Part shown: one piece after another, positions 1 to 45,563 of the stretch
How the letters are laid out: each line of letters opens with the position of its first letter
Numbering within the stretch: the first letter of the stretch is position 1
Origin: a virus
Taxonomy: Duplodnaviria > Caudoviricetes
DNA: 64,000 nt
Virus record (IMG/VR): IMGVR_UViG_3300023174_000048
Coordinates: 138,295 to 202,294 of that record
Strand: one strand, 5' to 3'
The notes under the pieces: model-generated
Seen by the model: only the letters and a program-made list of their open reading frames with translations
The model's database searches: none
What the model was told of the DNA's origin: nothing
Position numbers and translations under genes: made by a program

Positions 1-193
1 TAGCTATTACTTATAGTATCTAAAAGCTCATTAACATTTCCGCTTTGATCATATGTTCCGTAGTAACTAGGTTGTCCATTTGATCCTACAGAAGTAATAT
101 TACCAGTTAAAGCATTCCATGATGCTGAATTATTATAATTAGCGGTATTACAATTATTTAATAAATAACTCATCACGTTTCCTTATAGGGCTA

Positions 194-4082: not shown

Positions 4083-4649
4083 TTAAGATTGTGTAGCACA
4101 TTTAATAGTAATAATTTTTTCAATTAATTTTTTACTATCTGTAATTGAAGATACTATGAATTTAAATATACTAATATTTTGTTGATTATTTGAAATAGAT
4201 AGATTTACTGGAACAACACCTTTTCTTACAGATATTGTTTCATTAGTTGTTGTCCCTGGTTTTGGGATTGTGTATTCAGAATACTTTACAGACTGTACGT
4301 TAATATCTGTTGGTAATGAATTTGTTGTCAATTCAACAAGCTCAAAAGAATACTGATAAGGATCTAATTTTAATTTACTAACTTCAAATTCTAATATTCC
4401 ACCTAAGCAACAGAAATTTTCTACTATATCATTTCCTACTATTGTATTCTCATAATTTAGTACAATTTCTGGAGTAGGATCAAAGCAAATTTTTTGAGCT
4501 ATCCATTCTACTATGGATCCATCGGTAAGTTTTGTATACAGTCTTCCAGTAACGCTATTTATTACTAATTCTCCAACTAAAACCTGATCGACACTTGGAA
4601 AGCCATTACCGCTTTCGTCTCTTTTTAATAGTAGTTTCATACTGAACAT
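4083..4649 (-). CDS. Virion protein with Mtd_N/hyaluronidase-like N-terminal module
   Basis: N-terminus LLLKRDESGNGFPSVDQVLVGELVINSVTGRLYTK resembles the N-termini of 41255..45547 and 45564..50429. Confidence 0.55.
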   Translation of the reverse strand: MFSMKLLLKRDESGNGFPSVDQVLVGELVINSVTGRLYTKLTDGSIVEWIAQKICFDPTPEIVLNYENTIVGNDIVENFCCLGGILEFEVSKLKLDPYQYSFELVELTTNSLPTDINVQSVKYSEYTIPKPGTTTNETISVRKGVVPVNLSISNNQQNISIFKFIVSSITDSKKLIEKIITIKCATQS

Positions 4650-7126
4650 ACTCCTGTAAATAATACTGTTCCGAAATCCCAGTTGCTTAATTGATCTGTT
4701 TGTTGTTGAGAAACAGCATCAGGATCATCTTCTGGTAGAACATTACCAGAACTATAAATATAAGAAAAAGCGCTTTGACCAAAAGAGTTCCATGCTGATA
4801 TTCTATAATAATAATTTATTTTAGATGTTGTGCCAGTAATTGTTTCTGTAGTATTAGTTATTAATTGATCAAGAGCGGAAACTGCAGGATCATAACTTGG
4901 ATAATATTGCCAAGTTAATCCATTATCAGATGATTCTTCTATTGAAAAACCCAATAAATTGGAAGATCCATTTTGTCCAGCGACCCAAGATAGTCTTATA
5001 TCTGAATATTCACTATTATCAAATGTCCTTACTTGGGTTAGGCCATATGGGGCTTTTGGAACAGATAATCCTGGAATTATTGTTGAAGAAGCATTGGAAT
5101 ATTCTCCTATTCCGATAGCATTTTGAGCAGCAACTCTAAATAGGTATGAGGTCAATGGTGACAACCCAATTATAGTAGCTTTATTAGAATATGCATTTGC
5201 TCTATTTATATAAAAATTATTATCATTGGGAATATCTGTCCATGTTGATCCGCCATTAGTAGAAAATTGTATTAGATAATTTATGATCTGACTATTGCCA
5301 TCACTTTCTGGAATAGTCCAAGATATAGAGGATTCAGCATTTCCTGACCCATTATTATCAGGGTCTAGTATCACGCCAGATGGTTTACCAGGTATTGTTG
5401 GATTAGTCTTTGGTACTCTTGATATTATTTTACCATTTTTATCAATAGTTAATAAAGCATTAGTTATATATTTATTACTATTATTTGATAATGGAGATGG
5501 TCTTAAATAAATATCTTCAGCAATAATATTAGGACTATAAGTTGTTCTGTTAACTGTTAAATCAGCATAGTCATAAATATATCCTGTTATCGTCACCTCT
5601 CCGATTTTATAGGTTCCAGTTGGTAGTGAACTTATAACATATGCGCCGCTGGTATTAATAGAAACTTTTGCTCTAGTATCATAACTCCATCCTGAAGGAT
5701 TTACTTTTTCTCTGTCTAAATACTTTGTGAAGTATACTCCAGAAGCTGGAGATCCGCTAGCTGCGTTTGGTATATTAGCATCTATTTTAAATGCAGGAAC
5801 TAAACCAGAGGGAATATTATTTGTATTTAGTCCAAAAATATTTTCATCATAGTTTCCATATCTTGTTTTTCTTTGTCCATAAACAAGGAAGTCTATATTT
5901 TCACCAAGCATATTAAATGCCGTATAAGTATCTGGTCTTATACTGATACTATTAAGTGTACTTGGTTTAAATTTTAATTGACTAGCTGGTAGTTCTTCTT
6001 GTATACAACTATATTGGTTCTTTGCAGTTCTTCCCAACTGCATGTCCATATATGCTCCCTTAGTAACAGAGAAAGCATAACCATTGCCTGAGTATGAAGT
6101 ACCACCGGACCAAGGTTTTGGAGTACAAATTTTAATAGCTAATCCTTGCACTGTTTGATCAGGCTCTCCATCAGGATCGACAAAATCAACATCAAAATAT
6201 AAATCACTTAATGGAGTAATTAAATCAATAGAGTCTTGTTCAGCACCGTATCTAACTTCTGCTGCAAATTTTACAAATGTAATTTCTCTAGTATCATTAC
6301 GCACCAATTCAATAGTATCAAAACCCACCCCAAATTCTGCTTCTAATATATCTTGCGTTAATGCTGTTGAGCTTATGCTAGCATCTGCCCATTTGGGTTT
6401 ATTTACATAAAATATAATTCTACCATCCTCAATCTTGATGGGTCTCTTTGAGAACCTATTCCACAAAACACCGTCCGCATTAAGATAGACTGCGGGAGAC
6501 CATTGTGCGGGTTGGTCTTTTCCCATGTGTGTTAAAATATTCCCCTTATATCCTTCAAAATTTGGAGCTATTTGTACTCCTTCTGCTAATTTTGTTAAGG
6601 CATTGATTGTAACGGTTGCTGGGATTTCTGTACCATCAATAGTTGCAGATGGAACGTACTCTATCTCTGGGAATGCTTTTATTTCATGAGTATTAGGATT
6701 ATCAAAATTTCCAGAACTAATATAAAGAGGTCCATATGGCTGGTTTGGCATTGTTAGAGCATTTAATCCAGTATTAAAAATTAATTTATTTCCAGGAATT
6801 GCTGCTAAGTCATTGTCTCCGGATCTGTATATCAACGATCCATCAGATCCAGGATAAGAAGGTACTATATTACCACTAGAGTCTATTTTACTCATGTTTT
6901 GATATAACAGGTTTTTAGATCTTAACCCACTAGTATCAACATACCCTTGAGATACTAACTGAATACCACTTGCTCCAACAAGCCACATATTTCCACTAGC
7001 AGCCAATTGGATGTTCTTATCTCCCAGGATATTATAATATTTTCCATCTATTTTTTTATTTCCGGTGTTAATACTAACTCCGGGCCAGCCGCTAGGTCCA
7101 ATAATTGTATACCAGGGATTACTCAT
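4637..7126 (-). CDS. Tail-tip protein with two C-terminal fibronectin type III domains
   Basis: PGKP...ISWTIP...GLSPLTSYLFRVAAQNAIG and PKAP...LSWVAG...YYYRISAWNSFG are FN3 signatures (~4760..5390). Confidence 0.65.
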   Translation of the reverse strand: MSNPWYTIIGPSGWPGVSINTGNKKIDGKYYNILGDKNIQLAASGNMWLVGASGIQLVSQGYVDTSGLRSKNLLYQNMSKIDSSGNIVPSYPGSDGSLIYRSGDNDLAAIPGNKLIFNTGLNALTMPNQPYGPLYISSGNFDNPNTHEIKAFPEIEYVPSATIDGTEIPATVTINALTKLAEGVQIAPNFEGYKGNILTHMGKDQPAQWSPAVYLNADGVLWNRFSKRPIKIEDGRIIFYVNKPKWADASISSTALTQDILEAEFGVGFDTIELVRNDTREITFVKFAAEVRYGAEQDSIDLITPLSDLYFDVDFVDPDGEPDQTVQGLAIKICTPKPWSGGTSYSGNGYAFSVTKGAYMDMQLGRTAKNQYSCIQEELPASQLKFKPSTLNSISIRPDTYTAFNMLGENIDFLVYGQRKTRYGNYDENIFGLNTNNIPSGLVPAFKIDANIPNAASGSPASGVYFTKYLDREKVNPSGWSYDTRAKVSINTSGAYVISSLPTGTYKIGEVTITGYIYDYADLTVNRTTYSPNIIAEDIYLRPSPLSNNSNKYITNALLTIDKNGKIISRVPKTNPTIPGKPSGVILDPDNNGSGNAESSISWTIPESDGNSQIINYLIQFSTNGGSTWTDIPNDNNFYINRANAYSNKATIIGLSPLTSYLFRVAAQNAIGIGEYSNASSTIIPGLSVPKAPYGLTQVRTFDNSEYSDIRLSWVAGQNGSSNLLGFSIEESSDNGLTWQYYPSYDPAVSALDQLITNTTETITGTTSKINYYYRISAWNSFGQSAFSYIYSSGNVLPEDDPDAVSQQQTDQLSNWDFGTVLFTGVCSV

Positions 7127-7142
7127 GATTAATTTCCTCTAT

Positions 7143-10100
7143 TTAATTAAACCATCCAGGACCATTATTATTTGTATCACACCACCAAGGAATCTCATTA
7201 TATGATAGAGTGTTATCGGAACATAGCGAGATAGTATCTTCATCTAATCTTAATGGCTTAGCATTAAATGAACAACCAGCAGATATGCAACTCGCAACAG
7301 AGCCAAAAACAGAAGCATAAGGATTATTATATTGGGTTAATAGATTTATTGATGGAGATACTGTGGTTGTCCCTTGTGATGTAGGAGTATCTACCACTAC
7401 TGGATCAGTTAACCCTGTAAAACTTTTTGCAGATCGTATGGTTCCGTCACCAACAACAATATGGTCAACATATAACCACCCACTAACACTAAGATTAGCA
7501 TATAATTTTGCTGCCGAACCTGTGATATCAATACCTGTAGCTATAATTTCTGGCTCACTACGCTTAATACTTACGGTAGATGTTCCTGTAAAATCGTTAG
7601 AATTAACAGGACGATAGTAGGCTGCCTTATGCCATTCATTAAGATTGGGCAACCAATACTTTCTATACGATGACTTAACAACATTATAAGAATTACTTCC
7701 TATACTATATATTGTATATGCTCCGACGCTTAAATTATAATCAATATCAGACTCACTTAGCGTAATACTTGCTCCATTATGTAGCCAATTAATGAATTTA
7801 ATAGCACTCAAGTAGCTAACAAAAACTACTGGTTTATCACCCATATTTGACTTTGTACTATACTCATATCCAGCATTACTAATACGAGTAATTCCTCCTT
7901 GAGCATTACTACTCATTCTAATGTCATATAGTTCACGATCATTAATTTTTGCTACTGCATTTAAAAATGCACAGTATTGTGTATTTGTTACTTCGTATTT
8001 ACCAATACGATAAATATTATTTACAACACCAAGATTATTAATAACTTGTTGAGAATAAACTGTTGGAGATCCTGCTGGGTTTTTAATATAAATAGGATTT
8101 AAATCTTCTATATTTTTAGGATTATTAACTCCAACAAAAGACATATTAAGACCATTTGTACTAGAGATATAAGTCTGGTCTGTTATACCTTGTAGACTAG
8201 CAATTCTAAACCCAACATAATTATATCCTGACGCTCTAATTAAGGACTCAATACTTTTTAAAACATTAGATCCTATTATGCTGTCATTTGCTGTAGAATA
8301 AGCTCCTCCCGCAATAAATTCTATACTATCTCTAGATTCTATTGCGTCTTGTTTTTCTATCCATTCAGCAGCATTACCGTTCTGATCGTATGTTCCATAG
8401 TAAGACGGCAATCCATTAGTGCCCACACTAGACAATAATCCAGAAAAAATATTTCTACTATTATCATATGCGTAATTTGCAGATGAATACTGGTTTGATA
8501 ATCCTACTCCTGTAATATTAATTATTGTAGAAAACATATCCGAACGACCCGTGGCAAAACCCGAATAGATTCCAGAAGGTATTAATATTCTTCCTGTATT
8601 TGCTTTAATGAATAATGCTGGATCATCTCCAAGTCCATATACTGAGAAATTAATATCTTTTTGACCAGCATTAAATGTTGTATCTACTAATGGTCTAATG
8701 CTTAAAGTATTAGAAGATGAATTTGAAATTATTCCATCATCAACACTCTTAGTCATTGTTAAATATCCACCCTTAGTTATGGAGTAAATATTAACATTTG
8801 ATGTTGTATTTTGTACGATACTTTCATCAACTAAAAGTCCAACAATAGCATTGCCATTTAACTCTAAACTAATAACTCTTCTATATAAATTAGATCCATT
8901 ATATGATATTACTATTTGGTCTCCAGGAGCAAACTCATCAGAAGGAACACTATCTGCGAAAGTAATTTGTCTTAAGCAAGCTGTTGCTGTTCGTGGAGAA
9001 TATTTCGTCCAGACTATGTCTCTCTCAGTTAAGAAATAGTCATCTAGAGTATATATTCCAGTAATTGCTCCGTTTGCTGTTGTGCTCAATAATTTATTTG
9101 CTGGAACAGGAATTCTTAATGATCCTGCTGAGTCAATACTGAGTGGACTATTAATTATTTTGCCACCAGAAACCATCAATAATCCGCTAGACCCTAAATT
9201 ACTAATGGTTATATTAGACGCATCAATATTTTGTGAAGATATGTTTGTTAAATATGATGTCCCTGTGGCATATAATGAGGCAGACGAGAATGTTATGGAT
9301 GATTGTGGACTAACTGTTATTTGACTGCTACCATTAGTTAATAGTAGATTACCATTATTATTAATCTGTAATCTATTTCCACTATATCCAACATATGTAG
9401 AATCTACTGTTGTTTGTATTGTTTTTATTCCTGTGACACCAGAAACTACTGTGATATCTAATGAGCCCTTTTCTCCATAAACTGTTGTATTGACTGCTCG
9501 TGATTCTATCTGGGCATAATTTGTTTGATTGCCTGTAGAGTTTTTAGCAGAAAGGTTGATCTGGGAAACTACGCTTCCACTAGTGATGTCTGTGGATGGT
9601 TTATGATAAAGTGTTATATTTGCTGGATAACAAGATGTTCTATTCTCTAGTCTTAGACCCTCTTGACAAACCGTATTAACAATATGAAATACTGTTGATG
9701 GTCGTGAGCCTGAGGGAATGTTGATTCCTACTCTTCCGTCATAAGAAAAAAATAAATTTTTATTTAATGATCCACTTCCATAAACTATAAAATCACTACC
9801 ATTACTATTGTTATTAACAACAAATGGATATGTGCCGCTGGTCGGTATGATAGTATCTGCGGATGATGCTGAATTTGCTCCGATAAATACTCTTTGAGAC
9901 CCTGAGTCCCAATACATTTCTGCATTATTGATGTCTGCACTCATTATAGAAAAAGTATCAGAATCATTATTTAATGACTGTACGCCCATTCTTTCTGGTG
10001 TCTTATTATTTAGTACTACCCAATCCTTCCCTGTTGACGCCAATCTTGCATAATTATTAAACGAATCTAGTGTGCATACTAGCGAACCATCCTTATCATT

Positions 10101-10598
10101 TATAAATAATGGGTTTGATGATTCTATTAGTTTTAATTCAATAATAATATTGTTTGACTGGTCTAATGATGGAAGATTAATACTGATAGATTTTGAAGAG
10201 CAGTCTACAAGATACAAGGCGCTTATAGGATCTAAAGATAAATCTTTATCAATAACGATTGTGTTGTTTAGTCCTTTGTCAAAAGAACTTTGATTAGCAA
10301 ATACATAAAAATCATTACCAGAAGATGGAAAATCTACTGTATTGTTATTATTAGACGATGAAATAGTCTCAATTCTTTTAACAACAATATTACCAATATT
10401 ATCAAATACTATTTCTCCAACACCAGTTTCAAATAGGCGACTATTTAAGTTTCTGGCTATGTAAGGAATTAAATATCCTACATGATTGGTATTAAGAATA
10501 TTATATGTTTTTATAGCAGATACTGGCTTAATACCGTCATTTTCTATAACGAAATTAAATCCAATATTATCAAATACTCTTATTAGTTTGTTTGACAT
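7143..10598 (-). CDS. Tail-tip/receptor-binding protein with a circularly permuted FGE-sulfatase (C-type lectin fold) domain
   Basis: Immediately after TMP. SYYGTYDQNGNAAEW..GFRIAS precedes YRIGKYEVTN..KPVVFVSY..NWLHNG..WLPNLNEWHKAAYY. Confidence 0.7.
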   Translation of the reverse strand: MSNKLIRVFDNIGFNFVIENDGIKPVSAIKTYNILNTNHVGYLIPYIARNLNSRLFETGVGEIVFDNIGNIVVKRIETISSSNNNNTVDFPSSGNDFYVFANQSSFDKGLNNTIVIDKDLSLDPISALYLVDCSSKSISINLPSLDQSNNIIIELKLIESSNPLFINDKDGSLVCTLDSFNNYARLASTGKDWVVLNNKTPERMGVQSLNNDSDTFSIMSADINNAEMYWDSGSQRVFIGANSASSADTIIPTSGTYPFVVNNNSNGSDFIVYGSGSLNKNLFFSYDGRVGINIPSGSRPSTVFHIVNTVCQEGLRLENRTSCYPANITLYHKPSTDITSGSVVSQINLSAKNSTGNQTNYAQIESRAVNTTVYGEKGSLDITVVSGVTGIKTIQTTVDSTYVGYSGNRLQINNNGNLLLTNGSSQITVSPQSSITFSSASLYATGTSYLTNISSQNIDASNITISNLGSSGLLMVSGGKIINSPLSIDSAGSLRIPVPANKLLSTTANGAITGIYTLDDYFLTERDIVWTKYSPRTATACLRQITFADSVPSDEFAPGDQIVISYNGSNLYRRVISLELNGNAIVGLLVDESIVQNTTSNVNIYSITKGGYLTMTKSVDDGIISNSSSNTLSIRPLVDTTFNAGQKDINFSVYGLGDDPALFIKANTGRILIPSGIYSGFATGRSDMFSTIINITGVGLSNQYSSANYAYDNSRNIFSGLLSSVGTNGLPSYYGTYDQNGNAAEWIEKQDAIESRDSIEFIAGGAYSTANDSIIGSNVLKSIESLIRASGYNYVGFRIASLQGITDQTYISSTNGLNMSFVGVNNPKNIEDLNPIYIKNPAGSPTVYSQQVINNLGVVNNIYRIGKYEVTNTQYCAFLNAVAKINDRELYDIRMSSNAQGGITRISNAGYEYSTKSNMGDKPVVFVSYLSAIKFINWLHNGASITLSESDIDYNLSVGAYTIYSIGSNSYNVVKSSYRKYWLPNLNEWHKAAYYRPVNSNDFTGTSTVSIKRSEPEIIATGIDITGSAAKLYANLSVSGWLYVDHIVVGDGTIRSAKSFTGLTDPVVVDTPTSQGTTTVSPSINLLTQYNNPYASVFGSVASCISAGCSFNAKPLRLDEDTISLCSDNTLSYNEIPWWCDTNNNGPGWFN

Positions 10599-10601
10599 AT
10601 A

Positions 10602-13600
10602 TTAGGTTCTCATTGGGCGATTGTTTGCGGCTGAGTTTAAATTGCCTTCAAATTGGGTTCTATCGTATTTAGCTACTGTATTTTGACTTGTAATAGCTCC
10701 AGCATAATGACCAGCACTTTCTCCAGCACTTTTTCCAGCAGCAGAAGCGTGGTTTTGTACAGAGCCTACGTCTAATCTAACCGATTGTGTACCATTTATT
10801 TCTGCTGTTAATGATGTTGGTATTTGACTAGCAGTCTCTGACCAAGTATTTGCTGAACTAGCAATTGTTTGTGAGGCACTAGAGAATGTTTGGCCGAAAT
10901 TGTTTAATGTTTCAGTACTGCTTTGTATCATTTGACTATATGTTTCCATTCCTGATTCGAGTGCGGTGCTTAGTTGGTTCATAGCCTGTCCTACTGCAGC
11001 GCTAATACTAGACGATATATCATTAGATACACCACTACTACCACTACTGCCGCCACTACCTCCACTAACTAATCCAGCCTCAGCATAATATTTGGGCGCA
11101 ACTATTCCACCATTGGCCAAATAGTTAACAATTCCACCTCTATTGAAATGGCCACTATTTATAGCATTAAGAAGAGGCATATGTTGCTGACTAGACTCTC
11201 TGTTAACAACAAACTCTCCAGGAGTTAGCATGGCTGGTACAGTATCTGTTCCCTGAGATAATGATGGAACTAATGCTCCATTATTAGCATATACCAAGCC
11301 GCCAGAAGCATACATCATTCTACCACCAGCAGGCTTAGGAACATTCTGTATTTGTCTTTCTCTTTCTGCTTTTTTATATTCTTGTGACTGAGTGTAGTGG
11401 TCAGGAATAAGTCCTTGCGCCCCTAACTCTTGTGTTCTCTGTTCTATTCTTTTTGATTCTGCTGCATTATCGGCCATTTGTCTGGTTGTGGATTCTGTTT
11501 CTACAACTAATTGTGCTGCTGCTCTTCCAGGACTAAACATGTTCTCGCCAAAATTTTGAGCATACCCTTGCTGTCTTTGTCTATCATTTTCTTTAGCATA
11601 GTCTTCTGCTGTTTTTTCTCCGCTCATTATTGCTGCTGCTTCGGATGCGTAACTGCCAGCAGCATAACCTCCATAAGCAGCAACGGCGCCAATGCCTGTT
11701 GCGGCAGCAGGACTTGAGGTTCCTAGTCCAAAAACTTTTGCTCCATGACCAACAGAGTGTGCTGTGTGTCGTGCTTCTCCGATCATATCAATTCCTTCTC
11801 CAACCAATGTTGCTGTGTGTCCTGTACCAAAATGGGCATCAAGATTAGATCCCATTGTTCTCATATTTAATGGATTTCTTCCTCTGGTAGCAACAGCGGA
11901 CAATCCTGTAGAAGCAGCATTTCCAGCCAAAGAACTAGTTGTCATACCATGATGACCATGAGAATCATGACTGTCATGATCGTCAACATGACCACCATTA
12001 CCATAATATCTTACTAGTCCACCTTTATTATATCCATGGAATTTCATTAACTTCTTTAAAATTCTTTCTGCTATTTTATTGCCTTTTACTTTTTCGATAT
12101 TTTCTACTAATGTTGTTAGTAGTTCTGATGGATTCTTTTTTATAGCCGATGAGCTGTATCCATTCTTGCTCTTGCCACCACTAATAGAAGATAATCCACT
12201 AGGATCATCAACAAATTTTTCTATTTCTTTCATTAAGGGCGATTTCTGTAAACTTCTTTTTCCAAAAGGATCTTTTTTACTACCTTTCGTACTTTTTTGA
12301 AATAGATGACCAAGCTCGTGTTTCACAATACTCTCATCAGCATATTGAGATCCAAAAACTAGTTTTGATTCTGCTGTTGTCATACCAACTTTACTAGAAT
12401 TTGTTACTGGTCTATTTATTCCTTTTATTTGTCTACTAGCATTGATTTTGTCTAGATCAACCGATACGGATTGTGGTGTAGATTTTTCAACAAATTCTGA
12501 TAAGAACTTATTCCTTCGTGCTGGAGTAACATAATCAGCCAAATCACTTGCTAAATTCTCCTGAACTTGTCTGAATGACACCGGGTCTGTAACATTAACT
12601 TTTGATTTTGTGGCTGTTGTTGGCTTAACTGGTTTAGTTGGAATAGTTGGTTTAGTTGGTTTGGGTTTTACTATAGATGGTCCGGCAACTGTTGTTTTAG
12701 CTTTTCCTAACACGCTTTGGGTCGCTGTGCTATTTGGAACACCTTGATTAACAAGATCTTGAATCTGTTGATATTGTGCTGCTGTTATTTTGGGCTTAAC
12801 TTGTGGACCGGGTGTTGGCATAGTCAAATCAATATTTGATAATTTTTCATCCAATGCTCTGCTTCTTGCTGCTTTAGCTTTGGCCGCTAGTCTACCATAA
12901 TTACCATCATACTCTAATGGATTAATATCGTCTATGCTTCTGATTTTGGTGGGAGCAGACTCTGGGAATGTTACTGGCTTTGCTGGTTTTAAATTCTTAT
13001 AAGAAGAAGTAGTGCCTGATCTATTAAGATTTGGTCTTGAATAACTTGGGGCAATACCTCTAACTCCTATAACATCACCCATTTGAGTAGCAACATCTTG
13101 AACGCCCTCAACAAAATTATTAACTGCCCTTCCGGCTCCACGAGCACCAGGAATTCTACCACCCAATCTTCCTGCTCCTCTGGCAGTTGATGTAATAGCT
13201 CTATCTACTGTTCCAGCAACTCTGCCAACACTAGCAGCACCAGGTATTTTACCAGCAGCCCTACCAACACTAGAAACACCAGGTATTCTACTAGCGACCC
13301 TTCCAGCAGCCCCTGCCATTCGACCGGCAACATTAAATACTGCTCCTTCAGCATTAACTAATGCTCCTGCGCCTTGAGTGCTTCCATACGCAGTAGTTTG
13401 AGCAAATGCTGTACCAAAGCCAGCCCAACTATCCATACCACCAGCCAGCTCCACATTTCTAGCATCATTACGTTGTAATGCTGTTTGCTCACCAGTTTGT
13501 ATCGGCCCCATACCAGCAACAGCTTGTCCGGCTTCAACAAAACTAGTTGCTCCAGCACCCATAGCCCTTAGTCCAACATCGGCGGCCGCAGAAGTTGCTG

Positions 13601-16600
13601 CAGAATAAGCTCCCTGTTGATTATTTAGTCTGTCGCTGTTTGCCGTAAATGTTCTTGCTCTTATAGCAGCAACATCTTGAGCAGCCGCTATCTCTTGAGG
13701 AGATGGCATTGGTCTGCCATTAGCTCTAGCCTCATCATACATATTTTCGGCTGTTCTGTTTCTTAAATTATTTTCGTCTCCAATTTTAAAAGCTGTATCA
13801 TCTCCAGACATAGCATATCCAATACCTCCAACAATAGGAGATGCAACTGTTGCAACTGCTCCGGCAGTTATATTTGCCGCCCCATAAAGGGCGTCTCCAA
13901 TACCCTGAGTTACTCCTCCAACATATCCTACTGCTGCCGTAGCAGGATTGCTACTATTTATATATAATGATGCTTGTCTATCTTCTTCGGCTTTTTGCTG
14001 TTGTGCTCTAACCTTTTCTGCCGCACTAACTTGTTGGGCCCCTTCAAATTGTGCTATCGCTTCGCTATTTGCTTGATCCTGTAATAGTTGTTCTGTTGTT
14101 GGAACCTTATAGCTTGCAACAGATTCCTTATAAGGTTTAGGCATATATGATCTTTGTTCATCTCTATATTTGTCTCTTTGCTCTTCTTTAACTTTTCCTT
14201 CGGCTAAGAATTTATTAAATTTATTATCTATTTCTGCTGTTTGAGCATCTTCTTTAGCTTTATTTCTTTCATTGATTACTTGCTGTCTTCTTTGTTTCTT
14301 ATAAGCTTCTCTATTTCCTTCATCATCTCTCCATGCTCCTGATTCTAATAGTTGGTTAAATTCAACATCAAATGCTTGTTCTTGAGCTGCTATTTGTGCT
14401 CTTTTTTCTATTCCTATTTTTGTGCTAGTAATAGCACTATCTGCTTCTCTCTTTTTCTTCGTGTCGCTTGAAGTTGTAGCCGTTTGAATTGAAGAAGATA
14501 ATCCTGGACTAGCAGTTATTCTATAAACATTTTGTGTTTCTGCTTTTGCTCGTATTTTTGGATCATTACTATATTCTAATGGATCTGTAGCGCCAACAGA
14601 TTGATAAGAATTTATTTGACTATTCGGCATAAACAACTGATTTGGATATTTTATCATTGTCTCAGTCGCTAGTACATTCGATGGTGATCCAAGAGGAAAG
14701 TTAAACCAATCTCTGCGTGAGCTTTCTCTATCTCTAGTTGTTTTTTGAGACTCAAACCTTGGGGTATTAGGATCTCCTCCATATGTATAATTTGTTCCAG
14801 CAACATAATCTCCAGGCAACGATACTCTAGGACTTGGAACCATTGGACCAATATTAACGCCTAATCTTCCATCCTGATTTTTAATTTCTGGTGTTCTCAA
14901 ATTAACAGAAGTATTAGTCTGGGTTGCTTGTTGAGTTTGCTGTGCCTCATAAGCTCTATTATCGGCTATGCGATTAACCATTCCTTCTAAAGGATTTCTT
15001 GTTTGGTATTTTGGATCATTTGGATCTGGCTTTTGTAAAACCTTATTGGTAGTATAAGATGCTAATCCTGTTTGAACACCAGAAGAGACCGCAGGATCAG
15101 TTATATCAGGTCTTGCAGTAGTATACTGCTGTCTAATTCCTGATTCGATTGCGGCATTTTGTTGGGCAGCCTGTTGCTCATTGCTTGGTCTTGAGTAGCC
15201 TTCATTTATTCTAGAGGCCGTTGCTGGATCAAGACCGCTAGGATTTACTGCGTTGCTAGTTATTGGAGGCAACGCAGCACTAAATGATAGAGCACGTAAA
15301 CTTCCTCTATTTCTACGATCAGAACCTAACTCTTTTAGGGCTGATCTTTCTTCTGGTGTTATCTCATTAGACTGAGCACCTTTACGATAAGCACTATTTA
15401 CTAAAGAAGAAATATTACGATCTTTTTCTACAGTATATGGACCGACCTCTCTTTTTATTTGATTAGATTTCAATGTTGCATATTCTGTTTCTTCTTCTGG
15501 ACTTCTTCCTTTGCTTCCTTTCATCCACAATGATCGTCTTCGTGAGTCTTCAGATTTGATTTTTTTCTTCTCGTCAATAGCTTCTTGAGTTGGTCTAATT
15601 TTTGTTGTTGTTCCTCTGCCCCACGGAATAACATCTGCTCTTACTAAAGGAACCGGTAATGATGGTTGTATTACTGGTTGTGAAAATTCTTGTGGAGACA
15701 GCGACGTTTGAGCTATTGGAGTATTTAATGCTGCTGTTTCAGCATCGCGTGCTTTTTCAAATCTTTCTGTAGCTCTTTTCTTTTCTTCGTTAAAAAAATT
15801 AGCACCAACAATAGCAGAATTAGGATCCTCCTTTATGCTACCATATCCTGCATCGTTAGCGCTTCTGAGCTGTGCATCGTTTTCTTTATTATTATAATTA
15901 TCCCATCTATTTTGAAATTCTGGTTCATATTTTTTGGCTTCTGATTGTCTTTCATCTTCTGTCATCCCCATCCATCTACCATCGCCTACCTGAGATTGTG
16001 CCCAGCTAGATGATGTTCTAGAAACTACCTCATCAGGTCTTCCTCCAGTTGCTTCTGACATCATCCATGATTCTTTTTGAGCATCTATTCTTTCTTCTTT
16101 TCTTTTTTGTACTTCGCCACCCTGTGCTAAATAAACCACTCCGCCCTTACTATAATTTCCACTATTAATAGCTTTCAATAATGGCAAGTGTTCTGAGGTT
16201 GATCTTGCATTAATCACAAACTCGCCCGGAGTTAACATAGCAGGAACAGTATCAGTTCCTTGTGGTTGGAAATTTACTAATTGACCTTCACTAGCATAAA
16301 TTAATCCTCCGCGAGCCTTCGGAGGAGCAACTGGGGCGGCAACTCCGATATTTAATGGAACTTTAGCTCCGCCAGGAGCATTAATTCTACCTTCATTCAT
16401 ATCATTATTAAGCATACTAGCTTCAACAGTTGTTCTAAGATCATCTATACTAACCTTAAGGTTGGCATTTGCTGATACTAGAGCCTGCTGAGATTCTAAT
16501 AAAGCCAACTCTCCTTGTGCCTTAGTAGCATCAGCCTGTAATCCAACAGACTGTAAATATTTGCTAGAAGCTTCTTTCATTGCGGGATCAGCGTTAGGAT

Positions 16601-19600
16601 TTTCCATAGCAGCTATTGATTGCTGAACAAGAGGATTATTCATCATTCCACTCTCGATAGCCATACTCTTTGTTAATTGTAATTGTTGTTGTTTAAAATA
16701 GTCAGCAACAGCTTGGTCAGCACTTACCCCAGGCTTTCCTTTACCCTGAGCATATTGATTTCTAATATTTAATTCTTGAGCAGCTCTTACTCCAGGATCT
16801 TGTGATAGGGCCAGTGTTTCTTTTCTTTGATTGGCTAATACTGTATTACCAGCCTTAGTAGCTTCTCTTACACTTCCTGTTTCTCTTAATGTTTGATTAA
16901 ATGCTTTGCGAGCATCTCTTTGATTACTAGCACCATTTAATCCTCCAGAAAGATTTCTTTGAAGTCTTATAAATGTTTTATTAAGTTTATCAGCTTCTTC
17001 TGGAGTATTTGTTAGTAATGTATTAACAAAACTTTCTCTATTCTTCTGAAGATCTCTAACATTCTTTAAATCATCAAATGCTTTTTCTACTAATTCTGTG
17101 CTACTTGCTAATGTGTCTAAAGCTTCTCTTGTATCTCTTAATTGATCGTCTAATGATCTTAGTTGTATAGCAGATTTTTTAAGTTCATCAGGATCGCTCA
17201 TGCCCTGTCTTTTTTCTTCTACTGCTGTTCTTTGTGCTTGTAAGTCAACAATTCTATTTTTAATTCCACCAACAGAGGTTTCTCCGCCAGCTAATCCGGC
17301 CACATCACCCATAACTCTTGCTTGTTTCTCATCATAAGTTTCACCAACGCCCGTCATAACCTCTCTAAGATTCATATCTCCTTGAGCTCTGATATCTCTA
17401 GCTTTCTTAAAATAGTTCTGAGCATCTTTTGCTGCTTTACTAGCATCTCTAAGACCTTCGGAGAAATCGGCTAATGCCCCTTGTTTAAACGATGATAATG
17501 CTTTTACTGCTTCAAGCGTTTTAACTCCAAAGGCCCCAAGAATATTATCGGCATCTCCTAATCCTTCTCTAAAAGCGTCTAATTCTGCTTGAGGCGTATC
17601 ATTTTTTTTCTTAGCTTCTTCTGCTAAATTATTTATTCTTGTTTCTGCTTGTTTTTTAAGGCTTGTCTTTTGTTCATCTGATAAGTTTGTTTTATCTATT
17701 TGTTCATTAGTAGTTTTAATAGCCTCTGTTTTGGCTTCTTCAACTCCCAAGCTTCCCTTGGTACTTAATTTTTCTGCTATGCTTTTTGTTATAGCATTTG
17801 GTAATTGTTGTTGTAGTTGTGCTCCGCCTATTAACTGGTTCCTAGTTTTTTCATCAACTCCTGCTGTTGCAGACTGTAAGGCTTGATTAAAATCTTTTTC
17901 AGAATAAGCATTTGGATTTTCAAGAACATTTAATTCTCTTAACTTTGGACCATTATCTTCTGATTGTCCTCTTAATGCTGATCTGCTTTTTTCTGCCGAT
18001 GATTTTCTAACATCAGATTCGAATTTAATTCTATTAACAGATTCACTAATAATATTTGATAATTTTTCAAAACTAGCTGCTAGTTTTCTGCCAGCTTTGT
18101 CTGCAGCCTCTAAAGCATCAGACATTTGTTTTGTTTTTATTGCAGATTGAACCTGAACATTTGTCAGTATTTTTTGATTAGCAACTTCATCTAATATTGC
18201 ATCTTGTTTTTCTTTAGAAACCTTCTCATACCCACCTTCTTCCATAATTCTTGCTCTAACCGTTTTAAGAGCATCTTCATCTGCTAATACTAATGCTCTT
18301 CTAGCCCCAATTAATTCTTTATCTGCTTGTATAGATTCTACACTAGCTCCAGTATTAATTTTTTGTGATATTAAAGCAAATGCTTTGTCTCCACTATCAG
18401 CATTTCTTTCAGCTATCTTGCTATCTAATTCATTAAAATCTTGAGTATCCATCTTTGGCTTTTCTGCTCCGGATAGAAACTCTGTCCATGTTCTAGTTTT
18501 ACCCTTTTCATTTTGTGCAACCTTAGTCTCAGCAGAAACAGCTTTTAGAGATGATTCTGAGGATCTAACAAGAGCCTTATCTAAAGCCTTTTGTAGATCT
18601 ATATTACCAAGATCTTTCTCAAAATCCTTGAAAGCCTTAGCCAAATCTTTTTCAGAAGCGGCCACTTCTTCAAATCGTAAATTCTTTTCCATCTCTAGAG
18701 CAGCAGTTTCTTGTGCTCCAGTAAAATCGGTAAAATAATCAGTAGCAGCATAGACTACTGTACCTAGTGCTGTTAATCCTCCTAATAGGGGATTTATAGC
18801 CATTAATTGAGAAGCAGTTGTTAAACCGGTTGCTAGTGTTGATCCGGCCTGTTCAATAGCGGCCCCTTTACCAGCAGCAGCAATCTTTCCTTCGTCTGTG
18901 GAAGTATCATACATTAGATTTGCAATATTTTTCCCTTGTCCACCAACTAATCCTGCCACCATTCCAACGTCTCCCAAAGCTGTTCCAATTCCTTGGGACA
19001 TTGTTCCTGAGAAGTATCTTTCTTGAACAGCTTTTTTAATAGGACTATTTCTAATATCAGTTAAACCACCAGCGCCAACTCCTTTTTCTCCCTGCTCTTT
19101 GGCCATCTCATTAATCATTTCTCTTCTTTTACTAACTTCTTCCTTAGCAAGAGAGAGTGCTTCTGATGCTGATTTGACTGAGACACCTCTAACAGTTCCA
19201 GCATTCTTATATTCTTCTAATCTCATTGCAATAAGCTGTTTATCCATCTGAGCTAATGTTTTACGATCAGTCATTGACTGAGAAACATAACTTTGAATAT
19301 CAGCTCCGCCGATGCCCATTCCTGAAAGTTCTGATCTTTTAATTCCAGTAACTTTTTCTGTGGCTGATGAGAATGCCTGCTCTTTAATCTGTCTTTGTTC
19401 TTTTTCTAATCTTCTATTAGTTCTTCGTTCTAGTTTATCTTTATCTCCTAATAATGATGGATCTTTTTTGATTAAATCTTTTTCTATTTGTGATTTTCTT
19501 TGTGCTGTAATTAATTTTTCTTTTTTCTCAGCTTCTGTTAAAATGGCTTGCTGGGCACCACCCGAACCAAGAACTTTACCTGTTTTTGATTCTTTTAATC

Positions 19601-22600
19601 CTGCTTCTAAAAATTGTCGTTTTGCTACTGCTGTTTTAGCTTGATCTCTAACATTCTTTAATGCTTTTTCTGCTGCTATTATAGTGTCTATTGATGCTCC
19701 AGTAATCTTGAGTCTTTCAACATCCTTAGTCATTGCCTTTTCAATATCTTTATAAGATATGTCAGCTCCTGCCCCAACTTGTTCAAGAACTTTCTTAAAG
19801 CTTATCATGCTATAACCAGCTTCTTCAAAACCTTTTGTTAATAGTTTAATATTATTAACTAGTTCTGATGAAGCTTCTATACTTTTACTATCAATAGTTT
19901 CTGGTCTGGTTTTTAATTTTTGAACTGCTGGTTCAGCAAAACCTTTTAATCCTTTCATTATTTCTTCAATACTAAAAACACTACCTCCAGTAGCAAATCT
20001 TTGAATTACTCCTCCACCAACTACTCCTCCCTTATTATAACCCTGTAATTTATCCGCTTTATTTAATGTCTCTAACTTGCCATATCCTATTTTTTCTGCT
20101 GCTTTCTTATTAACAACAAATTCACCAGGAGTTAATAATGCAGGAACAGTGTCCTTTGATGATATTCCTGCTTGTCCTCCTTGAGCAAAGGTCTCGATAT
20201 TGGTTGGCTTCAAGGGAGATGATCCAACATATTTTAATGCTAATCCTAGTGGTTTTTCAAAAAGTTTGGATTCAAAAGAATTTACTAATTCGGGATCTCC
20301 AGATTGTATTCTGGACATAAGCTGACCCAATAAAGCCCCTTCTCTTACATCTCCTTCACTTCCGGCATAAATAGATTTTCTTGATCCTCCAGGCAAGGTA
20401 AACTCTGTTCCGTCTTCGGACTTTAATGTTTGAGATCCTTCTTGAACACGTACTCCAACCGACATCATCCCAGCGTCTGGATTTTTATCAAACTTACCTT
20501 TTAATCCGGTTTGATTTTCAGTAGGAGCATATTTATCTTTAAGAGTATCGTAATTATCATGCATCCATTGTACCACTAGTCCTTTTTGTAATTCATAATC
20601 TAAATCATAAGTTTTTGGATCTAAAGTTTCATCAAAACTTAATACCATTGGTTTTCCTGATCTATCTCCTTGAGCAACAGTGAAGTTGCTTCCTCCATTA
20701 ACTCTCATCTTAGCTTGTTGTTCTGCTTTATTCTTTTCTGTATATAAGTAGAATCCTTCTCCTTGACCATATCCTTTAGCAATATTAGAAAGGGCACCTT
20801 TTTCTTTAAAGCTCTTTAAAACACTATCATCAACTCCGGTATTGCTTCCGTGATATAGTTTAACTTGTCCTCCAGTAGCATATCCTCTATTTTTTCTCCA
20901 CATTTTTTCATCATTAGTTTTGGTCTCAAACTCTTTTGGCTTGCGACCTTGTTTTTCCATAGCCTCTTGTATTCTTTTTTGTTTATTAGCCTGGGCAAGT
21001 TCATATCTTTCTTGTTCTGGTGATGTTTTTTTAGATGGTATTAGTCCAAATCTTTTGTTTATCTCCCAGTCTGGAATAGCATAGTCTTTATATCTATTAT
21101 CTAATCGTTCTTCTAATTTTGCTGTGAGTTCTTCTTGGCTCATGCCCAAAGTCTTTGCTCGTGCGGCAATATCGGGTGGGGAATATGATCCTCTTACCCA
21201 GCCACCCTCGGAAAGCATTTGTATGTCTTCTTTGACGGGTTCTGGAATTCCATATTGTTGTCTAAAATGTTTTTGGAATTCTTCAACAGCCTTGCCTCTA
21301 CTATTACTATCTATTGTTCTTTTAACTTCTGTTGGAATATCAGGATCGATACCAAATATTTTTGCTGCTTTAGATCCGATGCCCATTGGAAAGTCAATCG
21401 GACGAGTTCTTAAAGCATCGTCTAATATTGTAGCATCTGCTGATCCAAAAATTTGTTCTAGTAAAGCGCCTTCAATATTACCCTGACCTAATGTTTCTCT
21501 TTGTTTTTTAGTTAATTTCTTTGGAGATATTCCAAGAAGTTTGGCTGCTCCGCCTACAATTTCTTCTGTTTGACCACTAAGATAATCAATTACATTTTGA
21601 TATTGATTTGGTAATCCTCTCTGAACTATTGAAGCATCTATTGATCTTTCTTGTCCAGACGAATCAACTCCAAGATTCCAAGTTTCTGGCCCTAATAATC
21701 CAGTATATCCCAATGGATTTAATCCAACTAGTCCTAATTGTTTTGACGATAATACAGCGCTAGTTGTTTCTGCTAGTGACGTGGCCTTTTGAGTTCCTTG
21801 TGATTCATTAAATTTGTCTATTAGATAGTCTCTTGTTGCAATATAGTAAGCGAGCTTGTCTGCTTTTGTTTCTGGTCTAAATGCAGAATTCCAGTATTTT
21901 AATTTTCCTCCTTCGGCGGTATCTCTTACTGTTTTTCCTGAGAATGGACCAAAACTTGCGTCATTTGGTAATCTGTCTGTTCCAAATCTTTTTAATATCT
22001 CTGTTCCTTGTGCTGGTAATATCCCAGAAGACTTCTTGACCTGAGTAGCCTTTTCTACATTTTTTAGTATTGCTTCTTGTAGTCCAGAAGGCATTGCTGT
22101 TGGCACCCCACTAAATTCACCGGCCATGCCTTCAGACAATTGGGCCGATATGACATCTTTAGATAAGTCGGATGGCTGTGCTGATACTGATGCTCTGCGT
22201 GATGGATCTAATCCATAAGCATCTGGATATTTAGCAGATAATAAGGAGATTATATTGTGTGCTCTGTAGCCCAAAAGACTGGAACTCAATTCGTCTCTTT
22301 TCTCTCTCATAGCTTCAATTTGGGCTACTACATCTGGAGCATTGTCTCTTACCCTTTGAGTAATATTTTTGCCGTATGGGCCTCCTGGAGCTTCTGCTAA
22401 CATTTTTTGAATTTCAGCATTTGTTTGAGCTTTTTGATTTGCTCCATATTTTGTTATTTCTTCAATAAGCATAGGAACCATCACGCTGCGATTTCTTAGC
22501 TGTGCTCTATTGCCCATGAGAACAGAAGCAACTTCTGGGCTAACAAAACTAGTTAAAGCTTCATCATCTCCATTAATCACTGCTTGCCTAACTTTAGTAG

Positions 22601-25600
22601 CACTAATATCGTCTATCCTTGGAATATCTGTTACGTCAACTCCTGCTTTTTCATATTTTTGAAGAGCACCGGCTTTTTTCCCTGATGTGATTGCTAATGC
22701 TCCTTTTAGTTTAGCAAATTTTCTACGACCATTAGCTCCTTGAACCTCCATCATTTTTGGCAAAACATCTCCTCTGCCAGTTGATTCGGCACTTATCATG
22801 CCTCCAGGAAAATTAACTCCTGCTAATAATGCTCTAAAATCTGCTGGAAATATGCCATATCGTGCAGCATGTGCGAGCTTCTCTGCGTCGGTATCTCCTT
22901 CTCCTCTGTCCATCGATAAATTAGGAGCAACACTCACTATAATATCTTCTGCTGAAGCATTTGGATTTCTAGAAATCATATTACTTAATAAAGTATCAAA
23001 TGCTCCACGATGGCCTCTGGTCGGTGGAGCAAATCCACCAGTGTAGTATCCACCAGCCTGAACAATTTCTGGCAATTCTTCTTCAGTCTTACGTCTTAAA
23101 CCAAAACCTCCTGGTTTGCGACCAAGAACGGTTGCCCTTTTACCTAATTCATCCCTTAATATACTCTCTTCTACTGTAAAATCTCTAGGAGCAATATTTG
23201 TAATTCCTGGTTTACGACCATATAGACCTTCCCCCGTTAAATCTCTCTGAACTCTATTAGCTCCTATTTGATCTTGTTCTTCTGTTGTATTGGAACTTAA
23301 TATATATGCTCTATCAACATCTTTTAAATATGCATCTAATTTTTCTTGACTAGCAGTAGATGTTAAGACTATAACCTCATTAACTTTAGCAATATCTTCA
23401 GGGCTAAGAATTGAAGAGCGAATAGTTTTTCTTAAAGTTGCATCATCTGGAGATCCTTTTCCCGTAGCCAAACTACTTTTGCCTGATCCTGCTGCTCCAG
23501 CGATTGCTGTTAATTTTGATAAAGACTCTTCTTTTCTTGCTTGTGCTGCTAATTTTGCTAATTCTCTGCTATATAAACTAGTATTTGTAATTCCAAGTTT
23601 TTCCATGGCTGGTCCAACAATATCGGCATTTGCTGGATCTCGTAAAACATCTGTATCTATAATTCCTATATTTCTTTGTACTTTTCCACCAGCAGCATAA
23701 GTTTGTCTCTGAATACCAGCACTACCCAATAGATCAGTTAGTGTAGAATCTAAAGCTCCTTGAAGATTACTATCAAGTCTAGGATAGTTCTGAACTAGTG
23801 TTGTTAAAAATTCTTCTTTCCCACTATCTTCTATTCTATCAATATAAGATTGAGAAATACTATTATCTAATAATACCTGATTAACTTCTGGATTTAATGG
23901 TTTAAAATCTTTAGCCTTTTTAATACCAAGAGATTTTGCCCAAAGAGAGGATGCGGCGGTGGCTGCTTCGGGAGTTTTAGCAGGCTTGTCTCCCCTGCTA
24001 ATAGATCGATTTTGTTGTATAATTTGATCTAATGTTCCAACTTTGTATGAACGTCCATATACAACATCCGAACTATTATAGCTGGACTCTAAAGCATCAA
24101 ATGCATCTGCTAAATCATTATTATCTCCACTAAATAGTGAAACAACTCTTGATTTATATTTATCAAAACTCTCTGATGATCGTGTTCTTAATCCTTGAAA
24201 TAATTGATGGGTCATTTCATGATAAAAAGTATCATTTTTTCTACCAGAAAGTCTTCCGGTGCTCATGGTGATCGCGCCACGGCCAGTAGCTTTAGCTGTG
24301 GTTTGCATCTGATCCATAGCAGTTAATTCTGCTTGGTTTTTTAATTTTTTAGTATTAGATATCTTCATTTGAAGATCATTAATCTCATCCCAAGTTTGTT
24401 TAGCTAATGCTTCATCATATGAAAAAGATCCGTCATCAAAAGTTTTTACTGGTGTTTTTATTATTTTCTTCAATTCTTTTTGTTTTTCTGCTACTAATTT
24501 TTCATATCCATAAAGATCCTGGTCATTGGCCTCTGTATATCCAGAACCAGATAGGTCATAGCCAGATGTGCTTTTAGTACCCATACCCGTTCTATCAAAT
24601 TGACCAAGACCTTTTAATCCCAGATCAGTAAAATCAATATGACTTGGTAGAGCTAATGATAAATCTTCTTTTGGTAGTCCTATGAATTTAGCAAAGTCAC
24701 TCATTCTTCTATAAATAGCGCTATTAGCTAATTTACTCTTGAAAGAATCTGCAAACTGCTTTCTATCGAATGGTATTGAGTCAAAAGCTTCGGTTGCTTT
24801 TGCTTGATCCACTTTGAATCTAAAGTCTTCTGGATATTCCAAGAAGGATCCTCCACTAAAAGCTTTATCAACTTGTTCTTTATTTAGCTTGGCGTCTATT
24901 TCTTTGAAATAGGCATTACTAATTCTTTTGGGAAATGGAAAAGTTCCACTTCCAAATGATCGGGTTTCTTTTGCTTTTCCTCCGGCCATGAATTTTTGAA
25001 TTTTTCCACCAAGATTTTTTTCTGTAAATCTACCTGTTTTAAATTCATCAGATATAGTTAAAATATTTGAATCGCCTTCTATAAGTAATCTATTATATCT
25101 ATCTTTATCTCCTTGTACAATTTGTTTCTTTAACTGCTTCAATTTACCTTCATCTGCATTATTCAGATTTTTTTTCAGTTCTTCTGTAGCCTTGTTTCCA
25201 GCCTCCACAGCCGTTAGTCCTGAATCTGTTACTATTGTTTCTGGTGGTATAACCCAATCATTACTCTTTTTTCCTGTTTTTTTAACCTTACTTAATATAT
25301 TAGCATTTTTTTCATATTTTGATATTTGATCTAATTTTGCTTGACTGACTTTACTTTCTCCAGTTTTTTTAGAGTTAGCTCTCTCGCCCATAGTCTCATA
25401 TGCATCAAAACCTCCTACTCTGAATTCTACTTCAAAAGGCTTTGGTCTAGGAATAGCAGTTGCAATAAAGCTATCTCCATCTTTTACTTTTTTAATACTT
25501 TCAAGTGATCTTATCTCAACAGCACCACCGCTAGCAAACCCTTTTCTTCGGTTTGATCCTCCAGCTCTTATACTTCCTCCACCACCATACTTATTCATAT

Positions 25601-37032: not shown

Positions 37033-40000
37033 TCATATTTGTATTATAGTAAGATCATCTACATAACCAGTAAATGTTGAGCCTCCCCAACATTCCGCCA
37101 ATATTTCAACAACACCCGCTTCGGTAGGAGTGAAGCTTAAGGAAACTTGTTCCCAAGTATCTGCAGCTGCTGTCATATATCCAGTAACATCGTTAGTTAC
37201 TCCTGCTATTTGTCCGCCCTTCACTCTTAATCTCATTATTAAACCAATGGCGCTTCTTCTCATCCAAGCCTTAACAGTAACCTGACTATTTGCACTAACA
37301 GCAACAGTTGCTAAACTAAGATCCAAAGGAAAATTTACATATCTAACATTTACGTTAGTCGGAGCCATTGCCCAAGCAATGCCGTTATTGCTGTATCTAA
37401 CAGACGTTGTTGAATAGATTAATCCATAGTCACACCATATATAATGAAGATTAGGTGTTTGATCATGATTATGAGAGAATATCTTACTATTATTACCATA
37501 TCCGGGGGATGCTATAGCTACTTCAGTAGTATCATTTAAAGCGCAGTTAATAAAATACGTTGGTCCACCAGTATTATTTCTATGAGAAGCTGTAGTATTT
37601 GTAGAGAATGTAATATTTTTGAAAATATTGTTCCATCCAAGAGTATTATTGTCTAAACCATAATTCCAATTATCGGATATTGTTCCACTATTAGCAACTA
37701 GGTTGTGAGCAGAAATAAAGGATATACCATTGATATTATTTTTAATTGTAAAGTTATCTATTGAATTATATTGAGCATTATAATACTGAATTCCTGGCCC
37801 ATTATTACTGCATATAATCATATTTTTAAATGATGTCTGTCCTAATTGAGCAAATGCGTAAACTCCACCAGCACTACTATAGCAGCAATATATAGTATCG
37901 TATGTAAAATTTCTGTGTTCTCTGGCGTAAAGACCAAATTGATCACAATTATTACAATGACAGTTTGTTGCTGTAGAATGCATATTTCCTGGTAAGAATA
38001 GTCCATAATAAAATCTAACAAAACAAGCTCTATCTACTGTTAGATTTCCACCAGAAAGGTAATAAGAATAATTTCCATATCCGAATCCGTTTCTTCCATC
38101 AAACCATGTTTCTCCGGTTCTGGTACTCATATCAGTTCTGTTCCAACCAAAAGAATAATTAATAGGATTGCCAACCCCATAAGATTGAGGTGGTCTTCCT
38201 CCGAGTTGAAAATTCAATAAAGATGTTGTTGTAGCTGTGGCGGTCGCCGCCAATGGTGCCTTTATTGTTTCTCTTTTATATGTTGTTACTGTTTCGCTAG
38301 TTCCATAATATCCTGGTATCTGTATGCTTGAAGACCCAATTGAAACCGGACCCCATTGTCCACCAGTATCAAGCATAACTCTTGTTCCATTAATGCTTTG
38401 GATACCACACCAAGTTTCTCCGCTAGTATTTTTTCCAATCAACGAACAAAGATTAAGACTATCTGCACTAGAGCTTGCCTTACAAGCAATAATATTAGAT
38501 AACAGAAATGTTTGGGCTCCATTATCAGTATTCACATAGAATCCTATACTTTGAATGCTCGCTCCTAAATTAGTACCAAGATCTATTGTTATAGGAGTCC
38601 ATCTATTGAGTACGGTCAGATTTTCGATGTTGAATGTATTTACTGCTGTGGCCCCTGCTGTATCAGAGCATAGCTTTAAAGATAATGCGCCAGATGCTCC
38701 TATTGTGCCTGCTGTTTGTTTTATCCAGAAACTGATCTGTTGATATCCGCTAAGATTCAAAGTTCCGGTCGCTTTGTATGCTGCTAATCCTGTAGTAAAG
38801 TTTACCCCAACAGCTATAGAGTCTGAACAGTCGCCTTCTTTGATGCCGCCCAAAGCATCAGTAGTAGCCAAAGATGTTGTTATATCAGCAGTCTGTGCTG
38901 TCCATGCTGTTCGTCCATTCCCTCTATTTCCATGACTGGCAATATTAACTATTGGGGATGATGCCAATATTACTCTTTGATTGGAAACTTTTCTTAAAAA
39001 TCCGGCAGCTCCAACTCCGTTTCCTGTTGATCCTACAAGGGCGCAGGTTGATCCGCTAACACTAGTAACTTCCCATGTGCCGTTCGCATTGGTGTTGGTT
39101 GTGTGGCCGGTAACGACCACAGTATCTCCATTGCTTATTCCTAAAGTTGCCATGGTGCTAGCGCAAGTCATAACAATAGGAGAAGCGTTTGTGCTGCTAC
39201 TCACAGAGTTTGCTCCTTGCATTTTTGAACCCACCCATGTGGCACTGCCAATACTAGTGGGATCGGTGCTACTCATTATTCGTAAAGTGTCATCACTTGC
39301 CAATCTTGTGGCCGACGCTCCTGTGCTAGAGAAAGTTTTCCATCTTCCTCCTATATAATATTGTCTGCTGCTCTGAGATGAAACCGCCGTTGCTGATGTT
39401 GGAGTTTGATTTATTCGTAAGCTAGTAGAGCTTAGCCTTTGGACTATATGATACATTATATAACTAGTTCCATTGAATATACTCAGATACTGCTCCGGAG
39501 GCTTTTCGTAAGTTGTTGCCGATGCGGCCTGCTCTATCTGTATACCACAAATATAAAGTCCACTATTATTATCTCCATTATATGTTGCATATGTTAATCC
39601 GGTATTATCATTTGGAACCAAAATAATTTGTATATTATCTGCAGCACCATTGCTAGTAGCGGTTATTGATATTCTGTACCAACCGTTTCCTATGCTGCTT
39701 ATTGCTGATGTGGCGCTTGCTCCTGTTTGCTCTATGGTGCCACTACTAAGATTAAATCTTGCGGCCTTAGCATCATTATCAAATCTCAAAATAACTTTTG
39801 TTCTTTCAGCAGCCTTGACATATACGGATATTGTATACTGAGTTGTTGCGGAGAGTGGATTATACCATGTTGTACTTCCCCAATAACGATTACTATTTTG
39901 TGAATCCTCCCATAGTTTATACACAGTAGCATCTACGCCACTTGGTCCTGTTATGGAGCTTTTTTCAACAAAGGACGCAGTACCAGCCAAACTATTTAAA

Positions 40001-41252: not shown

Positions 41253-41254
41253 GA

Positions 41255-45547: not shown

Positions 45548-45563
45548 TTAAATCTCTAGCTAA

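Follow-up and report, generated by a model that had tools for sequence, protein, structure and literature searches.

The locus and its genes

The window referred to here is the whole stretch of viral DNA that was analysed, 64,000 nucleotides in length. Within it, a tail protein of 1151 amino acids, hereafter P0001, is encoded between two further tail genes on the same strand, as follows (coordinates are those of the window).

10602..27299, minus strand: tape measure protein (TMP) gene, 5565 amino acids, with PF10145 (PhageMin_Tail) at residues 185-391 (E 4e-24)
7143..10598, minus strand: gene of tail protein P0001, 1151 amino acids, carrying the permuted domain
4637..7126, minus strand: FN3-containing minor tail protein, 829 amino acids, with matches to fn3 (PF00041) and to minor-tail PHROGs, downstream of P0001

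The first-pass annotation had placed P0001 directly downstream of the TMP gene, and the PF10145 match in the upstream 5565-residue frame bears this out; the stop of the TMP frame and the start of the 1151-residue frame are separated by a gap of 3 nt. This position, directly after the tape measure gene, is that of siphovirus tail-tip proteins (Dit/Tal), and from gene position P0001 may be guessed to lie at the tail tip. Portal, major head, and tail-fibre-like genes are found farther upstream on the same strand, and the locus is therefore regarded as belonging to the structural module of a tailed phage that is divergent. An orthologue of P0001 with 98% identity is encoded by the nearest record (G001), a virus contig of 131 kb that is 95% complete. 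In total, 387 homologues of P0001 were found, mostly 1150-1260 amino acids in length. Furthermore, in relatives of 1810-1834 amino acids (e.g., P0090, P0097, and P0112), residues 1 to ~1060 of P0001 are fused to residues 17-827 of the 829-residue protein, and the last ~90 Cys-rich residues of the P0001 orthologue are missing from these fusions. Because the orthologues are fused in these relatives, P0001 and the downstream FN3 protein probably act together in one structure.

Outside the FGE part, P0001 has no match in Pfam, PHROG, or NCBIfam profiles, and no firm identity was obtained for its N-terminal 670 residues from Foldseek, a PDB-sequence profile search, or ESM Atlas features. A Foldseek search with the full-length model returned weak matches to trimeric fibres and tailspikes, and a tblastn search of the whole protein against 50,697 GenBank phage records returned no match. 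A module of ~70 residues (...SIRP...FN...D.NF.VYG...) adjoins the FGE domain upstream, at residues 605-675 of P0001 (window ~8574-8786, minus strand); it occurs again in the 829-residue FN3 protein at residues 352-467 (~5726-6071, minus strand), where the two copies cross-match via the fused relatives, and a third copy was recognized by eye at P0001 residues ~245-300.

Order of the halves in the FGE-type domain

The first-pass annotation described, at window positions 7615-8484 on the minus strand (P0001 residues 706-995), an FGE-type domain whose C-terminal half precedes its N-terminal half. The domain limits obtained here, about residues 675-998 (window 7605-8576), are slightly wider, and the domain and the sequence that follows it are divided as follows, in the order of the protein.

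8196..8576, minus strand: C-type half, residues ~675-801, C-terminal in canonical FGE (ANY ... SYYGTYDQNGN..EW ... GG ... VGFR), standing first
8112..8195, minus strand: linker between the two HMM blocks, residues 802-829, running from the GFR strand (old C-terminus) to the FVGV strand (old N-terminus)
7605..8111, minus strand: N-type half, residues ~830-998 (YRIGKYEVTN, KPVVFVS, NWLHNG, WLPNLNEWHKAAYY), standing second
7146..7604, minus strand: C-terminal tail, residues 999-1151, not an FGE half, with no Pfam match and pLDDT 28-59

The swapped order was evaluated with three kinds of profile, and the matches taken together place it far beyond chance. The Pfam profile PF03781 aligns residues 861-995 with its positions 35-124 of 255 (E 2.5e-11; 44.2 bits against a cut-off of 23.3), and the piece comprising residues 712-771, scanned alone, matches positions 155-226 of 255 weakly (E 0.03). 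The partial matches to the FGE-sulfatase profile, which the first-pass annotation had predicted to occur in reversed order, are indeed found in that order. Since the generic profile is weak here, a sub-family HMM of 284 positions was constructed from four canonical domains of tandem-array relatives; it aligns residues 718-801 with HMM positions 192-282 (iE 3.5e-13) and residues 851-997 with positions 24-167 (iE 9e-38). In close homologues, the first block reaches back to position 169 and the second begins at position 3-4. Finally, in a profile-profile comparison of the family alignment, the first block falls on seed columns 170-272 (99.2%) and the second on columns 2-167 (100%).

All positions of the FGE-type domain are thus present once each, HMM 169-283 first and HMM 3-168 thereafter, and the breakpoints dovetail in the turn that connects the AAYY helix with the ANY segment. 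On this sequence evidence, the domain is a member of PF03781 that passes the family cut-off and retains all parts, with the canonical N-to-C order not kept. The linker is modelled as a short helix with pLDDT >90, and its sequence varies more than that of the halves (mean entropy 1.86 vs 1.48 and 1.50). The tail that follows the domain contains an invariant G-W...D...D...S motif (SGWLYVDH..VGDGTI) and then a Cys-rich end.

Predicted fold and structural relatives

Residues 668-1003 were modelled as a single chain by AlphaFold2 with an alignment of 104 homologues (alignment A1), and one compact domain was predicted with a mean pLDDT of 91.5 and a pTM of 0.92. Two independent pieces on a flexible linker would not reach such a pTM, and the model thus supports the expectation of the first-pass annotation that the halves form one folded domain rather than two truncated ones. 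In the full-length model, the same residues are the most confidently predicted part of the protein.

An exhaustive VIA-align comparison with 48,161 PDB representatives yielded only 15 chains with Z of at least 2, all of which are FGE/CLec-fold proteins, namely CarF, TvpA, ToxD, PorK, PvdO, CalU17, OvsA, EgtB, SenA, pFGE, OvoA, TaqVP, and Mtd. Residues 149-333 of the model align with the N-terminal parts of these targets and residues 6-139 with their C-terminal parts, and never both together. The N-type half matches the N-terminal parts of CarF (5aoh) and TvpA (2y3c) with Z 5.4-5.7, and the C-type half matches the C-terminal parts of FGE, PvdO, PorK, EgtB, and OvsA with Z 4-4.7. These Z values (4-5.7) are modest, and weak if taken alone, because only half a domain is alignable in sequence order. 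Likewise, Foldseek searches of the domain model against PDB and BFVD returned no significant match (E >0.1), the weak rows being FGE family members, since a sequential aligner places only one half. The only matches in a shape search of the ESM Atlas were clusters of canonical FGE, and these align with the N-type half (TM 0.34-0.46). Together, the pTM and the half-by-half matches suggest that the two halves would pack as in canonical FGE.

Conservation and distribution of the permuted register

The single C-then-N architecture occurs in 105 of the 121 homologues listed, at 45-91% identity over the domain. A profile search with alignment A1 of 1.84 billion proteins retrieved 8960 cluster representatives at E≤1e-3, 2217 of them at E≤1e-30. 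Among 140 further top cluster representatives, 76 contain canonical-register units only (FF, FFF, NF, and similar). A C-type half stands first in another 60, which include the patterns CN (16), CNCN (14), and CNCNCN. The units of CNCN and CNCNCN proteins are separated by spacers of 300-500 amino acids; P0139 (1535 residues) carries permuted units at residues 17-302, 669-938, and 1245-1519. In CFN and CFFN arrays, both ends lie exactly at the permuted boundaries. Judging from their sequences, the simplest reading of the CNCN, CFN, and CFFN patterns is that self-contained permuted modules have been strung together. When P0001 is compared with canonical tandem arrays, it aligns unbroken across their inter-domain junction.

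A second permuted domain is encoded by the same lineage, and the start of its gene lies at the edge of the window:

1..182, minus strand: first part of a paralogous fibre gene that continues beyond the window edge, with a six-frame HMM match at 3-182 (HMM 180-225, iE 7.5e-14)

In G001, this paralogue is an open frame of 1228 amino acids (G001:C1 about 91104-94787; L004:3105-6788), which opens with a permuted FGE domain comprising a C-type half at residues 12-99 and an N-type half at residues 115-309.

One array gene (P0086) is complete and resides in a 93-kb phage-like contig, beside genes for a ClpP-type protease, a second FGE protein, and an Mtd_N protein. The Mtd_N protein (PF18454; L005:16753-19303, plus strand) is encoded two genes downstream of the second FGE protein, which has 1593 amino acids. 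This contig, from an unrelated phage, additionally carries glycosyltransferases and a sigma-like gene.

The evolutionary association between the two registers was examined with a FastTree of 427 N-type halves (168 columns), which is unrooted and in which support at the key split is moderate (0.6-0.98). Along this tree, the register changes between permuted and canonical seven times, where shuffled labels give 136 changes on average, and one split (support 0.975) gathers 237 of the 240 permuted units together with 28 canonical ones. As far as an unrooted tree can indicate, the sequences suggest one or a few origins of the permuted register, and the pattern fits a route of permutation by duplication. 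The matches collected here indicate that the rotated FGE-type domain is common among uncultured phages. A full-text literature search yielded no account of an FGE or CLec domain in permuted form, and Iyer et al. (2021; PMC7824862) reported that lectin domains of this kind were absent from 224 cultured jumbo phages.

Comparison with known systems

Natural circular permutations are known in saposin/swaposin, in DNA methyltransferases, and in lectins such as concanavalin A/favin, all of which have other folds, and the route usually proposed for them is duplication followed by truncation. The P0001 domain resembles these cases in that the same fold is presented in a rotated order, although the folds themselves differ. 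The closest relatives outside the permuted clade are tandem canonical arrays (FF/FFF), such as P0035, which is named for a Chthoniobacterales bacterium, with 33-39% identity. These bacterial-type arrays have an N-type half first and a C-type half last, often with TSP3 repeats; they look like plausible intermediates of permutation by duplication and are not permutants themselves.

Among proteins of determined structure, CarF (5aoh) is the best match of the N-type half (Z 5.7). CarF, FGE, pFGE, PvdO, EgtB, and PorK (the PF03781 group) all have the canonical order, and the catalytic residues of the enzymes among them are absent from P0001. TvpA (Treponema denticola variable protein 1, 2y3c) likewise has an FGE-type CLec fold and is a non-enzymatic binding scaffold; its residues 53-214 align with model residues 136-331 (Z 5.4; 136 residues; 22% identity). 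In TvpA, the order is canonical and the C-terminal variable region is written by a diversity-generating retroelement (DGR), whereas in P0001 the order is rotated, the corresponding segment is internal, and a DGR is absent. Mtd of Bordetella phage BPP-1 (1yu0), a CLec-type receptor-binding protein of the phage tail fibre, matches the C-type half weakly (Z 2.2). It is only distantly related, its order is canonical, and its DGR variable region lies at the C-terminus, on a trimeric globular tip.

Interpretation and alternative explanations

The reading that we favour, to which a rough probability of 0.82 is assigned, is that residues ~675-998 constitute a single natural circular permutant of the FGE-type CLec fold, which would serve as a non-enzymatic binding knob, be reusable as a module, and have originated by duplication. 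Briefly, the old C-terminal segment (ANY to GFR) would come first, followed by a linker of ~25 residues and by the old N-terminal segment (up to NEWHKAAYY), and the new termini would sit at a turn that is internal in the canonical domain. The permuted unit is taken to be an independent module, used again by phages either alone or in series. Its probable source is tandem canonical FGE arrays that lost their outer half-domains, i.e., permutation by duplication.

The FGE fold could also be rebuilt by pairing between chains. Tail fibres are usually trimers, and in an oligomeric (e.g., trimeric) fibre the C-type half of one chain might pair with the N-type half of a neighbouring chain by domain swapping. 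The weak matches of the full-length P0001 model to trimeric fibres and tailspikes agree with such an arrangement; arrays with a C-type half first and an N-type half last also permit head-to-tail pairing, and the AlphaFold2 prediction, being of a monomer, is compatible with halves exchanged between fibre subunits. However, the monomer prediction is itself compact and confident, the linker (about 20-25 residues) is conserved in its length class and well modelled, and the CNCN proteins with their long spacers are most simply self-contained units; complementation between subunits is therefore considered unlikely. Still less credence is given to the view that no permutation has occurred and that P0001 preserves the junction of two complete but degenerate canonical FGE domains as a relic of a tandem array. 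The existence of relatives with canonical tandem arrays, over whose domain junctions P0001 aligns, is what this view would lead one to expect, but the degenerate outer halves that it calls for in the flanks were sought and rejected: when the 260 upstream amino acids and the 153-residue tail were compared by hhalign with each half and with the complete domain, the probabilities were 0.1-0.2%; the C-terminal tail is poorly modelled in the full-length model; and the C-type half of paralogues and relatives starts at residue ~10, too early for a missing N-type half to precede it. An extension of the HMM match into the tail in P0013 and P0017 was only apparent, being due to low-posterior alignment.

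A different proposal concerns sequence variation. The FGE-type CLec fold is a classic DGR target (PMC5758913), and the first-pass annotation suggested a check for a retroelement, of which the permuted domain might be the variable protein, with its variable region now internal; the presence of TvpA, TaqVP, and Mtd among the structural matches, and of an Mtd_N protein in the phage with a related array (the P0086 contig), points in the same direction. A reverse transcriptase (RT) and an A-mutated copy of the segment were searched for, and the suggestion failed. No repeat of segment 8150-8500 exists within the window, and none of the window ORFs of at least 120 amino acids resembles a reverse transcriptase. 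In G001, at 95% completeness, no RVT_1 match and no second copy of the segment were found, with only chance matches of at most 33 nt, and the segment equivalent to the variable region is 100% identical between the window and this 98% relative over 351 nt. DGR activity on the permuted domain is accordingly rejected for this lineage, and the idea is regarded as very improbable; in the permutant reading as well, no retroelement would act on the domain in this phage lineage.

Function and implications

FGE enzymes carry a catalytic Cys pair. The C-type half of P0001 (residues 675-801) contains no Cys at all, and no Cys occurs in the invariant or nearly invariant columns of alignment A1, so the FGE catalytic pair is absent. 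The proposal of the first-pass annotation that the domain lacks this pair and is probably a binding domain thus agrees with the present results, which fit binding and not an FGE enzyme. The domain is most likely a non-enzymatic host-binding knob that would recognize a ligand on the host surface, either a glycan or a protein. It would be carried by a multi-domain tail or fibre protein, functioning with the downstream FN3 protein. Variable, indel-rich stretches are present at residues 749-757, 768-775, 837-851, and 944-954, and, by analogy with DGR variable regions, these stretches are candidates for loops that contact the ligand.

More tentatively, and at odds that we place somewhat below even, the rotated unit may be a phage-specific, self-contained plug-in adhesin with one origin or a few, whose permutation was selected for stringing or insertion with the variable ligand-binding loops exposed. 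If so, a large unnamed class of receptor-binding domains would exist in uncultured large phages, and some members may carry an internal DGR variable region. Internal variable regions would escape searches for DGR targets that assume a C-terminal position.

Among the ligand-binding scaffolds of phages and bacteria, the FGE-type CLec fold is a major one. Only half of the rotated domain is detected by PF03781 (44 bits), and the same holds for sequential structure aligners (Foldseek E >0.1); many uncultured phages consequently have receptor-binding domains that are under-annotated. With tandem canonical arrays, arrays that are out of register, and permuted units standing singly all in existence today, the family would represent a well-populated natural case of permutation by duplication. 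For the phage analysed here, the results point to P0001 as a tail protein that probably contacts the host.

Other features of the window

Just past the packaging and head genes, the region 59407-62585 (minus strand) encodes a GDP-mannose 4,6-dehydratase (E 7e-112), an ERCC4-type nuclease, and another protein whose match to sigma-70 region 2 is weak and falls below the threshold (21.6 bits vs a cut-off of 24). Furthermore, three very large structural genes of 1057, 1430, and 1621 amino acids are located at 37033-50429 (minus strand); one of them has a right-handed beta-helix (PF13229) and one a BppL_N baseplate motif, and internal direct repeats of 117-194 nt are common to the 1430- and 1621-residue genes.
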